In this document: in pieces, positions 3,960 through 12,227 of the stretch | Layout of the letters: each line of letters starts with the position of its first letter | Position numbering within the stretch: the stretch's first letter is position 1 | NCBI GenBank assembly: GCA_038078715.1 | Contig: JBBTSU010000003.1 | Location: forward strand, 34,861 to 98,254 | Length of the DNA stretch: 63,394 nucleotides | Direction: 5' to 3' | DNA from: Patescibacteria group bacterium | GTDB taxonomy: Bacteria > Patescibacteriota > Minisyncoccia > Phycocordibacterales > Phycocordibacteraceae | Position numbers and translations under genes: made by a program | Notes under the pieces: model-generated | Databases searched by the model: none | What the model saw: the letters and a program-made list of their open reading frames with translations, nothing else | Told to the model about the DNA's origin: nothing

Positions 3960-6482
3960 ATGACATCTCGTGTCATCACCATTCTTTTACTATCACTGGT
4001 TTATGTTGTTTCTGTGCCGTCTGCGGTCGCACAGGAGGGATTTCTCTCAGAAACGCTCAAGCGTGGAGATACTGGTGAGCAGGTTCGCGTATTACAGACA
4101 TGGTTTGCACGTGATCCAGAGCTTTATCCGGAAGGGGTAATCAATGGAATATTTGGGCCCGCAACTGAAGCTGCAGTCAAACGTTATCAGGAACGGGCGG
4201 GGATGATTCTTATATTCCCGACGGGTGAGAGCACCTACGGCGTGGTCGGGCCGATGACCAGAGCAAATTTGAATGCTGAATTCTCTATGAATCGTGGTGG
4301 TGTCGCCGTCGTTGAAGGGGGATATGACAACGCGCGTATCTTTGATGGAGACACCTTCGTACCGCTCGCCCCAGCACTAGCAAGTGATGCGGGAGCGAGT
4401 TCGGAGGTTAACGTGTGGGTCTATCCTGTTGCACTTTCTGAGCGTCCCACGCTTCTGCTTAAGAATGAGAGCGGATATGCGGTGGGGTCTCAAGAATCAG
4501 GGAGGATCTATGTTGAAACTTCCACTCATCGCGCGATTACCCGACGCGCATATCTTATGCCGGGCACCTGGCAGCATCTCTCGGTTCGCATCACCGAAGA
4601 TCGTGCCTCCTTCCTCTATGACAACGAAATAGTAGAGACGGTTTCGCTCTCAAGAGTATATTCTTCTTTCTTCAGCATGTTCTTTGATCGACTTGGCAAC
4701 ATGTTTGGTGTGCCGGAGGTCCAGGAACAAAAGCGCAGCGTGTTCACTCTTTTCGGATCATTCTTTAGCACTATATTCGGTATTCCCCAGCAGTCAGAGT
4801 TGCCTGCGCCCACTGTATTTGTGCCCGAGACGACGACGCTCCCTCCTGTGGTCTCCACTACCACATCAGAGTCAGAGACCGTTCCTACGTCTGTGCCGGC
4901 TGTGCCACCTACTATTGGGGGGCCACTTCCTCCACTTGTGACTGCACCTCTCATAAGCACAAGTACCGAGACGACGGCAACCACTACTACCGCAACCACT
5001 ACTACCGCAACCTCTACTGTTCCAACGAAGACGACGTCCGTAACGACGGGGAGTACAGGCGCAAATACCAAACCAGTACTCACCCTTGAGGGCGGTGCCG
5101 CAGTCTCAATAGAGATTGGAAACCCCTATAATGATCCTGGAGTAATCGCACAGGATGCCGAGGAGGGAGATATCTCAAGTGAGGTTGTGGTTGGAGGGGA
5201 AGAAGTCGACCACACTACTCCGGGCGACTATACGATCATCTACAGTGTTGTAGATTCAGGCGGACTTGCGGCAACAGAGATCACACGGGTCGTGACCGTC
5301 TTACCGCCTGATGAAATATCCGAGGACGCACAGGAACCAGACTATCCTCTCACTGCTGCAGGCCAGAGTGTTGCATACAAAGTTTCTTCCGGGACAGGCG
5401 CCGATCCGACATTCGTTTCTATTACTATTGACCCCTTGCATGTGTATGTAGGGCAAACTCAGACCTTTACCGTTAAAGTGTCGTCTCCTGACGGCGTAGA
5501 GTCTGTCACTGCGGTGACGGAGCTCGACAGCACCACGTTAGAGCTTGAACTAGAGAAAATAAGTGAATCGGGCACGACCGCGACATTCGAGACGTCATGG
5601 GTAGTGTATGACACGCACGTGGATACGTACCGTACCGAGTTCACAGCGGTATCAAATTCAGGTTCAGGAAACTCTATGACCATGGCGTGGTCAGACCCAT
5701 GCTCAGGCATTACACAGGGGTCGGCCTCGTCACTCTCGGCCAATTGTACGGTTTCTAATGTGTATGGACTTGACGGGGGTAATCTCACTGTCCCGGGCGG
5801 TATCACCCTGACGATCAATTCGGGAGGCACGTGGGGATGGAACCCAGGTACCACTATTACCGTTGACGGTGCGATTTCAACTGGCACGGGCGGACAACTT
5901 AAGAAAGGGTATCTTTTCTATCAAGACTGTTCGGGGTGTGTGGATACCAATACTATGCACTGGTTCTCGTCGACTCCACAGACTGGGTACACTCGTGCGA
6001 GCACGTATTCCCAAGGGTCGTACTACAGCGAACCTTCGTACTACAGCGAACCTTCGTATTGTTTCGCACCAGAGACCCTCGTGCTCATGGCTGATGGTTC
6101 ACGCAAAGCTATCAGCGAGATCGTGCTCGGCGATCTCGTCATGGGACAAAGTGCAGATGGTACGCGCCGGCCCAATGTAGTCACGAAGCTCTTTGTCCAC
6201 GAGTCTACGGTGACAGGAGAACTATTTGATACTCTGCGTATTAATGACTTGATTACTGCGACACCTGAACATCCAATGATGACGACACGGGGTATCGTTT
6301 CTGCAGGCTCGCTTGTCGTGGGAGACACCCTTATCGGACGTATGGATGAGGTATCAGTGACGACGATAGAGCGTGGTCCTACGCTACCTACGGTCCACAA
6401 CCTAACGGTCTATCCTGATCATACGTATTTCGCCGAAGATTTATTGGTGCATAACAAAGGCATGCACGGATTGCCGCCATGA
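3960..6482 (+). CDS. Secreted multidomain protein: peptidoglycan-binding domain, LamG-like segment, Thr-rich linker, DUF5011/HYR-like Ig domain, C-terminal Hint domain
   Basis: Signal peptide; LKRGDTGEQVRVLQ..GIFGPATEAAVKRYQ (PG_binding_1-like); KPVLTLEG..YNDPGVIAQDAEEGDIS (DUF5011-like); CFAPETLV..TATPEHP..VHNLTV..LLVHNK (Hint). ATG at 3960 preferred over TTG at 3948. Confidence 0.85.
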   Translation: MTSRVITILLLSLVYVVSVPSAVAQEGFLSETLKRGDTGEQVRVLQTWFARDPELYPEGVINGIFGPATEAAVKRYQERAGMILIFPTGESTYGVVGPMTRANLNAEFSMNRGGVAVVEGGYDNARIFDGDTFVPLAPALASDAGASSEVNVWVYPVALSERPTLLLKNESGYAVGSQESGRIYVETSTHRAITRRAYLMPGTWQHLSVRITEDRASFLYDNEIVETVSLSRVYSSFFSMFFDRLGNMFGVPEVQEQKRSVFTLFGSFFSTIFGIPQQSELPAPTVFVPETTTLPPVVSTTTSESETVPTSVPAVPPTIGGPLPPLVTAPLISTSTETTATTTTATTTTATSTVPTKTTSVTTGSTGANTKPVLTLEGGAAVSIEIGNPYNDPGVIAQDAEEGDISSEVVVGGEEVDHTTPGDYTIIYSVVDSGGLAATEITRVVTVLPPDEISEDAQEPDYPLTAAGQSVAYKVSSGTGADPTFVSITIDPLHVYVGQTQTFTVKVSSPDGVESVTAVTELDSTTLELELEKISESGTTATFETSWVVYDTHVDTYRTEFTAVSNSGSGNSMTMAWSDPCSGITQGSASSLSANCTVSNVYGLDGGNLTVPGGITLTINSGGTWGWNPGTTITVDGAISTGTGGQLKKGYLFYQDCSGCVDTNTMHWFSSTPQTGYTRASTYSQGSYYSEPSYYSEPSYCFAPETLVLMADGSRKAISEIVLGDLVMGQSADGTRRPNVVTKLFVHESTVTGELFDTLRINDLITATPEHPMMTTRGIVSAGSLVVGDTLIGRMDEVSVTTIERGPTLPTVHNLTVYPDHTYFAEDLLVHNKGMHGLPP
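6021..6056 (+). repeat. Exact 18-bp tandem duplication encoding YYSEPS x2
   Basis: tactacagcgaaccttcg at 6021-6038 and 6039-6056, just before the Hint Cys codon (6060-6062). Confidence 0.95.
6060..6455 (+). other. Hint (intein-like / BIL-type) autoprocessing domain
   Basis: Block A C-F-A-P-E-T, block B T-P-E-H, block F VHNLTV..HTYF, block G V-H-N, followed by Lys rather than Cys/Ser/Thr. Confidence 0.85.
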
Positions 6483-11037: not shown

Positions 11038-12227
11038 AATCGCAACTTCTCACATTCCTATCGGGCGCACTACTTTTTGCGGTAGTGCTTCTACTCAGTG
11101 CATTCATTCCTGTGTCGCTTGATCAAGAAGCTGATCGTCTCATCGCTCGGTGCGCTGGAGTTGGCTACCCGCCTGCTTGTTATGACGAACACGTACCAAA
11201 ACTCATGGATAGGGGTCTCTCTATGGAAGAAGTATTTGCCGTCACACGACGTATCCAAGAAAAGACGCAATCGTATTTCTATTGCCATGTGCTTGGGCAC
11301 AAGCTTTCCGAGAAAGAGACGGCGAAGGACCCCACTGCGTGGACTGAAGTGATTGCGCGGTGTCCGTCTGACATTTGTTCAAACGGTTGTCTGCATGGAG
11401 CAGCGCAAGAGCGGTTCCGTACTGAGTCGCTGACGCCGGAGCAGCTCACAAAGGTTACTCCCGAGCTTATGAATCTGTGCGAAGCAGGGAATGGATTTTC
11501 GTTCACTGAACTTGAGCGTGCAAGCTGCTATCACGCACTTGGGCATCTCTCTATGTTTCTTTCTGGAGGCGATGTAGACGCGGCAACCGAGATCTGTGAT
11601 GTGGTCGCCGGCCGGAAGGGTATTGAGTACGAGACAACCTGTTATGAGGGCACCTTCATGCAGATTTTCCAGCCGCTCGAACCTGAAGACATTGTGCTTG
11701 TACAAGATTTACCAGTGAAGACCAAACAGGATGCGCAGGCATTTTGCGATCGTTTCTTGGGAGATCGTCAAGCCGCGTGTCATCGCGAGTCTCGTCCTCT
11801 GTATGGCACGCTTACACGTCCGCAAGACCTCGAGGCATTCTGCTCGTTGGTCCCAGGCGAAACATATAAGCGGGACTGCTATCTTGCGATGCTTTTTGCG
11901 TTGACGCCATATCTTAACTACGACATAGAGGCACTCACAACACTGTGTACAGGCGTGCCTGAGGAGCGGACCGCGCAGTGTTTTTCTAATGCCGCGGGTC
12001 GTTTTGTTGAATCCGATTACAGATTGGCCGAAGAAGCCGTGGCACTTTGTGATCGCGCAGCAACGTATGGGGTAGGTGATGCTTGCTATACAGAACTCCT
12101 CTACTACTCTACGTTTGTCTTCCACGAAGGATCTGTTGGCTTCACTGCACTTTGTAGTGCACTCCCTGAGCCGTGGGGAAGTCGTTGTAGTCGCGGGGAG
12201 GGGAAAGATCTCCAGATGTTTCAGTGA
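11034..12227 (+). CDS. His/Cys-rich protein, paralogue 5
   Basis: Start at ATG 11034 (ATGA overlap with paralogue 4); CHVLGHKLS, CSNGCLHG, CYHALGH, CYEGTFMQ. Confidence 0.8.
   Translation: MKSQLLTFLSGALLFAVVLLLSAFIPVSLDQEADRLIARCAGVGYPPACYDEHVPKLMDRGLSMEEVFAVTRRIQEKTQSYFYCHVLGHKLSEKETAKDPTAWTEVIARCPSDICSNGCLHGAAQERFRTESLTPEQLTKVTPELMNLCEAGNGFSFTELERASCYHALGHLSMFLSGGDVDAATEICDVVAGRKGIEYETTCYEGTFMQIFQPLEPEDIVLVQDLPVKTKQDAQAFCDRFLGDRQAACHRESRPLYGTLTRPQDLEAFCSLVPGETYKRDCYLAMLFALTPYLNYDIEALTTLCTGVPEERTAQCFSNAAGRFVESDYRLAEEAVALCDRAATYGVGDACYTELLYYSTFVFHEGSVGFTALCSALPEPWGSRCSRGEGKDLQMFQ

Follow-up and report, generated by a model that had tools for sequence, protein, structure and literature searches.

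What do five consecutive, mutually related genes encode when none of their products resembles a known protein family? This question is raised by a locus in a Patescibacteria group bacterium of the family Phycocordibacteraceae (assembly GCA_038078715.1), from which we analyzed a stretch of 63,394 nucleotides (contig JBBTSU010000003.1, positions 34,861 to 98,254), hereafter called the window. An earlier note, made from the DNA sequence alone, had pointed to five tandem paralogs and proposed that they represent a new disulfide-stabilized, helical and probably copper-binding family, expanded here for different substrates or as a hetero-oligomer. All five open reading frames (ORF1 to ORF5) are present on the plus strand between positions 6479 and 12227, together with the motifs quoted in that note. 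The safest statement about them is that they belong to a very large, previously undescribed family of Patescibacteria, whose helical domains lie outside the cytoplasm, are stapled by disulfides and share an invariant site made up of five His, a Met and a Glu (His5-Met-Glu). The family is probably a metalloprotein, and we consider it an evenly balanced proposition that it forms an extracytoplasmic metal (probably copper) module that works with a cupredoxin-like domain.

An almost invariant set of histidines, methionine and glutamate

The five proteins align from end to end, with 21-37% identity to ORF1, and all contain the motifs H-x3-H, C-x-H, C-x-H-x2-G-H and C-x2-G-x2-M-[EQ]. In the numbering of ORF1, the residues H89, H93, C111, C120, H122, C144, C157, H159, G162, H163, C180, C205, G208 and M211 are invariant among the five, as is a further series of cysteines, and the methionine is followed by glutamate in ORF1-3 and by glutamine in ORF4-5. 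These ligand motifs are confined to the first four helices in the N-terminal half of the domain and are not repeated in every hairpin. Each protein starts with basic residues followed by a hydrophobic helix (best 19-residue Kyte-Doolittle mean 2.2-3.0), in line with the N-terminal membrane segment or signal assigned to it previously, and the exclusion of c-type cytochromes also holds, as none of the five contains a CxxCH motif.

We quantified conservation in a set of 231 domain copies from 150 proteins, no more than 50% identical to each other, using the numbering of ORF3. The five histidines were present in 99% (H82, H110 and H147) or 100% (H78 and H151) of the copies and M190 in 98%, while position 191 contained glutamate in 90% and glutamine in 7%. 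Glycines flanking the ligands were similarly conserved (G150 in 100%, G187 in 99%), and 16 cysteines were kept at 91-100%. The complete His5-Met-Glu set was found in 583 of 653 fully aligned copies, and another 41 had kept all five histidines and lacked the methionine and the glutamate together. Judged from these alignments, the motifs go well beyond what chance would give, and the pattern is that of a functional site rather than of a repeat scaffold.

Family size and distribution

A profile of the five ORFs was searched against 1.84 billion representative proteins and retrieved 5,929 clusters (50% identity) at E <= 1e-3, and 3,966 at E <= 1e-10. ORF3 alone had more than 1,100 relatives; the named ones were all called 'hypothetical protein' and came from metagenome bins of the Patescibacteria/Parcubacteria type. 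Its orthologs, at 42-70% identity, made up more than 100 clusters. The family was found in 14 of the 301 sampled genomes of the phylum and in none of the sampled nearest relatives of the source genome. The latter is 658,598 bp in size and 100% complete, and contains exactly the five copies described here, which occupy about 0.9% of its DNA.

Scans of the five proteins against Pfam and NCBIfam gave nothing at E <= 1 beyond noise, and a sequence search of the PDB with the family profiles gave no match. The view that the family is unrecognized thereby stands, and a characterized non-metal family, which the earlier note had named as the kind of match that would speak against its proposal, did not turn up in any of these searches. 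No paper on the helical family was found in the literature searched. We regard it as new as a protein family and probably also as a type of site.

Contigs with such gene arrays at eight loci (L047, L057, L069, L074, L089, L092, L101 and L103) were labeled as Gammaproteobacteria, Bacteroidetes or Nanoarchaeia. These are probably mislabeled bins and not true occurrences beyond the phylum.

Predicted fold and disulfide bonds

An AlphaFold2 (AF2) model of ORF3, built from 61 sequences, was all-alpha with about 22 helices and had a predicted local distance difference test score (pLDDT) of 95.4 and a predicted template modeling score (pTM) of 0.89, which agrees with the helical nature proposed before. 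A Foldseek search of the PDB with this model returned nothing at E <= 1e-3; the closest hits were generic ARM/HEAT/TPR solenoids at E 0.039 with a TM-score of about 0.2.

The cysteines occur in consecutive pairs, the first closing a short helix and the second lying near the start of the longer helix that follows. Repeated cysteine hairpins had thus been correctly recognized in the earlier note, with the difference that the spacing is 7-15 residues rather than 8-13. The numbers of ectodomain cysteines in ORF1 to ORF5 are all even (16, 18, 16, 14 and 20), and cysteines tend to be lost in pairs: C100 was absent from 130 copies, 119 of which had also lost C108, and C263 was absent from 33 copies, with C277 gone as well in all 24 that were aligned at this position. 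The source genome also encodes a homolog of VKOR (E 6e-28). Because of the paired losses, the even counts and the presence of VKOR, the hairpins are likely to be stapled by disulfides, and the earlier description of the proteins as disulfide-stabilized is very probably correct. An export signal, an even number of cysteines, their pairwise conservation and an oxidizing system in the genome, the features expected of extracytoplasmic disulfide proteins, are all present.

Binding of Fe-S clusters by the cysteines was rejected in favor of disulfides on the basis of the export signal, the paired losses and VKOR. Heme b was judged unlikely, since six axial ligands would need three hemes within about 120 residues and no heme-related genes were found among the neighbors.

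Ancient subfamilies in a conserved gene order

For the analysis of gene neighborhoods we used 80 loci from genomes of different species, selected for orthologs of ORF3 (42-67% identical), and considered neighbors within 8 kb. At least two family genes were present at 75 of these loci and at least four at 54. In a maximum-likelihood tree built from 67 copies at 11 loci, deep subfamilies were resolved (support 100/99-100), separated by branches of 1.8-3.5 changes per site. ORF1 and ORF3 fell into subfamily A, ORF2 into B, ORF4 into C and ORF5 into D, and the gene order B-A-C-(C')-D was conserved across many genomes. A fifth subfamily, in which a cupredoxin-like domain is joined to a divergent family domain in a protein of about 490 residues, is absent from the window.

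The relationships and the gene order indicate that the paralogs are members of four ancient subfamilies in a conserved arrangement, and not the result of a local expansion as had been suggested. Since the subfamilies are old and their order is fixed, formation of a hetero-oligomer, or sequential or distinct roles, is favored over a lineage-specific diversification for different substrates.

Association with a cupredoxin-like domain

A domain of the cupredoxin type is repeatedly associated with the helical family. It was encoded within 8 kb at 57 of the 80 loci, as compared to about 5% expected by chance, an expectation based on there being only two cupredoxin-like genes in the 659-kb source genome (window positions 15075-15467 and C15:17482-17946). 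A gene in which a cupredoxin-like domain is fused to a domain of the helical family was present at 35 loci. Of the 45 relatives of at least 500 residues among the top 150 representatives, about 20 contained one or two copies of a PF13473/PF00127 domain, with E values down to 1e-18 and the signature W-P-A-S-N-x-H-P-x-H ... [FY]-H-D-H. Orthologs of ORF2 at four loci (L013, L015, L031 and L037) carry an N-terminal cupredoxin-like domain, which has been lost from ORF2 of the window and its closest relatives. Across the sampled genomes, the cupredoxin-like domain was found in 10 of the 14 that contain the helical family and in 66 of the 287 that do not (odds ratio 8.4, p 2.6e-4). Where the helical family occurs, the cupredoxin-like protein thus tends to be present as well, but the latter is also widespread alone.

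The copy in the window matches PF13473 (Cupredoxin_1) at 27.5 bits and shares 44-47% identity with each of the two cupredoxin domains in P0211, a fusion protein (E 5e-30). When compared to amicyanin, the first histidine is kept, while an aspartate is found at the position of the type-1 cysteine and a tyrosine at that of the methionine. The protein does not have the ligand set of type-1 (blue) cupredoxins, and its invariant residues are instead H50, H53, H84, D85 and H86, a composition that identifies it, as far as sequence can tell, as a non-blue, His-rich cupredoxin fold. Such Cys-less proteins were encoded in 76 of the 301 sampled Patescibacteria genomes, mostly as free, membrane-anchored proteins of 130-200 residues. 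They may be what papers on the Candidate Phyla Radiation (CPR) label 'putative cupredoxin/plastocyanin', and could not form a blue copper site.

A gene for a second small protein, with an immunoglobulin (Ig)-like domain and a histidine as the first residue of the mature chain (His1), was present at 28 of the 80 loci. In all 25 orthologs examined the cleavage site A|H and the mature His1 are invariant, with E26, D35 and W68 conserved in at least 90% and Y38 nearly invariant. One relative, P0174, unites all the modules in one polypeptide, with a His1 Ig-like domain, a cupredoxin-like domain and a pair of family domains (E 1e-11). The Ig-like protein is similar to YcnI in having a signal peptide, a mature N-terminal histidine, a beta sandwich, a C-terminal helix and a conserved acidic residue and tryptophan; it differs in that the DUF1775 profile gave no match to it and in that there is no CopC/CopD partner at the locus in the window. 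YcnI (DUF1775) of Bacillus subtilis is tethered to the membrane and binds Cu(II) through a monohistidine brace (PMC8424229). Membership of the neighbor in the YcnI or CopC families was not confirmed by profile or by fold. Many multi-domain relatives, such as P0170, P0172, P0187, P0192 and P0156, also have a mature chain that starts with histidine directly after the signal peptide (e.g. SHGDEEH, AHGDEQH), which is possibly a second kind of N-terminal metal-chelating tag.

A few family proteins contain other modules. P0121, a protein of 3,580 residues encoded on an 831-kb contig, has seven family domains followed by a GH3 glycoside hydrolase and LRV/HEAT repeats, and the C-terminus of P0158 consists of FG-GAP repeats. 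These architectures show that the domain can be used as a building block of giant surface proteins.

The source genome further encodes a copper nitrite reductase of the NirK type outside the window (C2:13536-14780), with an N-terminal membrane segment and the motifs HNIDLHAV... and YHCATP...H...M. Putative cupredoxins of the CPR have been proposed as NirK donors in papers that do not mention the helical family (PMC5581439, PMC12931201). A module that serves NirK was considered and set aside, since multicopper/NirK proteins co-occurred only weakly with the family (3 of 14 versus 16 of 287 genomes; p 0.05, rising to 0.18 when the query genome is excluded).

Possible arrangements of the ligands

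The placement of the ligands was studied by mean-field direct coupling analysis (DCA) of 427 domain sequences (effective number 393) after removal of gap artefacts. Couplings among invariant columns were pseudocount artefacts and were discarded. The top couplings were plausible hairpin contacts, and those between variable columns (for example R105-M144, V113-G148, G148-G186, S111-I189, A98-Y146, G93-G152, D95-T182 and P77-P199) pack the four motif helices and the helices between them into one subdomain. If the couplings G81-A107 and L79-D103 are real, H82, H110 and H147 may be level with one another, with H151 and M190 on the adjacent level, which would create a single cluster. If helix 77-99 is straight, as modeled, H110, H147 and H151 may lie against G93 and G96, with H78 and H82 nearer to M190 and E191, so that a His3 and a His2-Met site would result.

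A candidate copper module and its alternatives

In the model that we favor, the proteins would be type-II membrane-anchored extracytoplasmic proteins, each with a single all-alpha domain of about 330 residues that contains up to eight disulfide-closed helix-loop-helix hairpins. The conserved ligands would form a metal centre with one or two ions, most likely copper, that works with the Cys-less, His-rich cupredoxin-like domain and with the N-terminal-His Ig-like protein of YcnI-like architecture. The five copies would most likely be parts of one cell-surface assembly or act in sequence, and would not be redundant. Methionine and histidine ligands in an oxidizing compartment are typical of copper sites. 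This combination of ligands, the fusion and synteny with the cupredoxin fold, the link to an N-terminal-His protein and the presence of a copper enzyme in the genome make copper the best candidate, although we would place this identification slightly short of even. The support that fusion and synteny with the cupredoxin-like domain and the His1 Ig-like protein lend to copper is real but indirect. The analysis establishes the family itself, its conservation, the class of fold, the pairing of cysteines by joint loss and the links through fusion and synteny; that a metal is bound, that it is copper, that it serves redox or hand-off chemistry and that the paralogs form hetero-oligomers is what we infer. 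The module may act as a catalyst, in electron transfer or in the capture and hand-off of copper.

Several observations weigh against the copper module. The cupredoxin-like partner is devoid of the type-1 cysteine and methionine, so that it is itself only a putative copper protein. Its distribution exceeds that of the helical family three- to fivefold (76 versus 14 of the 301 genomes), which suggests an independent role for it. The weak co-occurrence with multicopper/NirK proteins given above also counts against the copper module. A Foldseek search with the Ig-like protein retrieved generic Ig/FnIII/PKD folds; YcnI and CopC were not in the top 50, and the copper protein CrdA was found at rank 38. 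The DCA fits one cluster or two sites 15-25 A apart alike, and the strong couplings G81-A107 and L79-D103 are in conflict with the single long helix 77-99 of the AF2 model. Finally, the few relatives that are fused to non-metal modules (GH3 with LRV/HEAT, FG-GAP) would fit a general surface scaffold equally well.

The ligand count also raises the prospect of catalysis. Five histidines and one methionine is the number of ligands in the copper sites of PHM and DBH, and the family could be a binuclear copper oxidase or monooxygenase with either a PHM/DBH-like arrangement of 3 His + (2 His + Met) or a tyrosinase-like coupled pair in the helical core. Such an enzyme would oxidize a small molecule or a polymer on the host surface, with the cupredoxin-like and His1 proteins as electron donors or as copper-loading chaperones in the manner of MelC1, the copper caddie of Streptomyces tyrosinase. 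Of the features that define PHM and DBH, the family has only the ligand count; like it, they are extracytoplasmic and contain disulfides, and type-3 copper proteins resemble the family in having histidines on helices, including H-x3-H, in a helical core that a separate small beta protein could load with copper. Two H-x3-H helices together with single-ligand helices, the reading of the DCA and AF2 results that gives H110, H147 and H151 as one site and H78, H82 and M190 as the other, and an invariant glutamate beside the methionine that could act in catalysis all agree with this. The resemblance ends there, however: PHM and DBH are built of a pair of beta sandwiches (PF01082, PF03712) and matched the all-alpha family neither by profile nor by fold, and type-3 sites contain six histidines and no methionine, in proteins without the disulfide-stapled, repeat-like hairpins seen here. 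Tyrosinase (PF00264) and hemocyanin gave no Pfam match at E <= 1 and no match in the PDB sequence or Foldseek searches. With no similarity in sequence or fold to either class, 4-10 paralogs per locus, up to seven domains in a chain of 3,580 residues, which is odd for an enzyme, no conserved substrate-related gene nearby and many hosts being fermentative and living in low-oxygen habitats, such a binuclear enzyme remains speculative and seems unlikely to us. A zinc-dependent hydrolase with a 3-His site and the glutamate as general base, acting on envelope polymers of the host, would make use of the same possible His3 cluster and invariant glutamate. It would suit the extracellular location and an episymbiotic lifestyle, which needs lytic enzymes. 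However, known hydrolase motifs such as HExxH are absent and none of the all-alpha zinc enzymes in the PDB matched the fold, the glutamate is replaced by glutamine in ORF4, ORF5 and 7% of the copies, and one would not expect a hydrolase to be associated with a cupredoxin-like domain. We consider this explanation very improbable.

The partner domains can also be read as signs of a metal other than copper. EfeO, which takes part in iron uptake by the EfeUOB system, consists of a cupredoxin-like Cup domain and a helical domain of the M75/imelysin type, and many relatives of the family share this order of modules, with a PF13473-type domain next to an all-alpha domain that bears His and Glu, outside the membrane and, in our case, predicted to bind metal. 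A module for the capture and hand-off of Fe, Zn or Ni that feeds a permease would suit tiny genomes, which depend on scavenging. It is at variance with the invariant methionine, an unusual ligand for Fe, Zn and Ni. The helical domain itself is unrelated to that of EfeO: neither a match to Peptidase_M75 (PF09375) nor an imelysin or EfeO fold was obtained, the motif is another one and the domain is rich in cysteines. Nor were EfeU/EfeB-like neighbors conserved; clustering of the neighbors at the 80 loci identified no conserved permease, known enzyme or substrate-related gene. The His1 partner fits general chelation as well as copper, as N-terminal-His proteins chelate metals generally (PMC12537917), and on balance we find a non-copper module quite improbable. 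A structural or adhesive surface repeat similar to the Sel1-like Hcp proteins of Helicobacter would do without metal altogether, with the His, Met and Glu residues lining a groove for a ligand or partner such as host cell-wall glycans or the Hint-domain protein. HcpB and HcpC are secreted proteins made of alpha/alpha hairpins, with a disulfide closing each repeat, like the helical repeat with one disulfide per hairpin seen here, and generic ARM/HEAT/TPR solenoids were the sole fold matches. The operon is shared with large PG-binding surface proteins, and multi-domain chains and fusions to GH3, LRV/HEAT and FG-GAP modules are known. Against this, Sel1 and TPR profiles gave no match even at E 1 (PF08238 included), no Hcp protein was among the Foldseek matches and Hcp proteins have no invariant His/Met cluster. 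Five invariant histidines, a methionine and a glutamate over thousands of diverged members, limited to the first four helices instead of recurring in every repeat, are unlike a repeat scaffold, and the repeated, specific fusion to a copper-type fold would be left unexplained. A structural or adhesive role without metal is accordingly rather unlikely in our view, and the copper module is the explanation we retain.

Operon structure and neighboring genes

Coordinates of the family genes and their neighbors are given in Table 1. The intergenic gaps from ORF1 to ORF5 are 5, 30, 3 and -4 nt, and the ATG of ORF1 overlaps the stop codon of the upstream Hint-domain gene (ATGA). The longest reading frame of ORF5 is 405 residues and starts with TTG at position 11010; translation most likely begins at the ATG at 11034, in an ATGA overlap with the stop of ORF4. 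The start of ORF3 is probably the ATG at 8875, since the database copy is 392 residues in length, as would be the protein initiated there. A scan of the five-gene block for promoters and terminators gave no signal above shuffled controls. Given the tight spacing, the ATGA overlaps and the lack of an internal promoter or terminator signal, the five genes and the two large genes upstream can be read as a single putative operon.

Table 1. Family genes and neighboring features in the window.
Feature	Coordinates	Strand	Description
Second large secreted protein	3-3893	+	upstream, same predicted operon
Secreted PG_binding_1 protein	3948..6482	+	844 aa; predicted upstream operon partner; PG_binding_1, bacterial Ig-like and C-terminal Hint domains
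ORF1	6479..7732	+	417 aa; subfamily A, diverged copy of the ORF3 type; membrane anchor at the N-terminus; full His5-Met-Glu motif
ORF2	7738..8838	+	366 aa; subfamily B member
ORF3	8869..10053	+	394 aa; subfamily A, most conserved type; protein modeled with AF2
ORF4	10057..11037	+	326 aa; subfamily C; motif ending in M-Q
ORF5	11034..12227	+	397 aa; subfamily D; motif ending in M-Q; 20 Cys
Sulfatase/alkaline-phosphatase-superfamily protein	12221-13564	-	convergent on ORF5, 7-nt overlap with its 3' end
Multi-pass membrane protein	13569-15044	-	491 aa; beside the sulfatase gene; weak spermine-synthase/methyltransferase C-terminal domain
Membrane-anchored cupredoxin-like protein	15075..15467	+	130 aa; W-P-A-S-N-x-H-P-x-H and H-D-H invariant
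His1 Ig-like protein	15464..15964	+	166 aa; signal peptide, beta sandwich, C-terminal membrane helix

The 844-residue protein encoded just upstream of ORF1 contains a PG_binding_1 domain, a bacterial Ig-like domain, a Thr/Pro-rich linker, a SYYSEPSYYSEPSY repeat and a C-terminal Hint/PT-HINT domain, which is followed by just 8 residues up to the stop. At 34 of the 80 loci relatives of both large upstream proteins were encoded, and at 19 a Hint-domain protein. On the other side of the array, the 491-residue membrane protein was found at 15 loci and the sulfatase at 5.

Two more families without Pfam matches were seen at the 80 loci. One, at 25 loci (L041, L044, L045, L047, L050, L052, L058, L060 and L062 among them) and not in the window, consists of membrane-anchored, beta-rich proteins of about 180 residues with two cysteines and the motifs EE[KR]QRHFEL, LDITGC and YGYGCD, encoded within the arrays on the same strand. 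The other, at 15 loci (e.g. L063, L064, L066 and L077), is encoded by tandem triplets and consists of secreted proteins of about 200-270 residues with an invariant GSGTFxIDHPLDPKNKLLYHSFVESPD core. Their N-termini are often of low complexity and rich in Tyr, Gln, Ser and Gly (YYSQSYYQSYYQ), which recalls the SYY repeat of the Hint protein in the window and the C-terminus of P0216.

Implications

A large part of bacterial diversity belongs to the Patescibacteria, yet most of their surface proteins are uncharacterized. Relatives carry up to ten copies of the family described here. Even if it is not a metalloprotein, it represents a major new domain that merits its own family entry, and is part of a conserved multi-gene surface module.

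Patescibacteria are mostly without heme and respiratory chains. Arrays of 4-10 His5-Met domains, or chains of up to seven, interleaved with His-rich cupredoxin-like domains might constitute a heme-free, copper-based redox assembly with multiple centres on the cell surface, moving electrons or activating O2/H2O2 at the interface with the host. We regard this as a speculative and improbable extension; if true, it would represent a new class of cuproproteins and a novel kind of conduit for electrons outside the cell. Should copper binding be confirmed, a new fold and type of site would be added to the short list of cuproprotein families, and the family would offer a handle on copper handling or extracellular redox chemistry in these ultra-small episymbionts.

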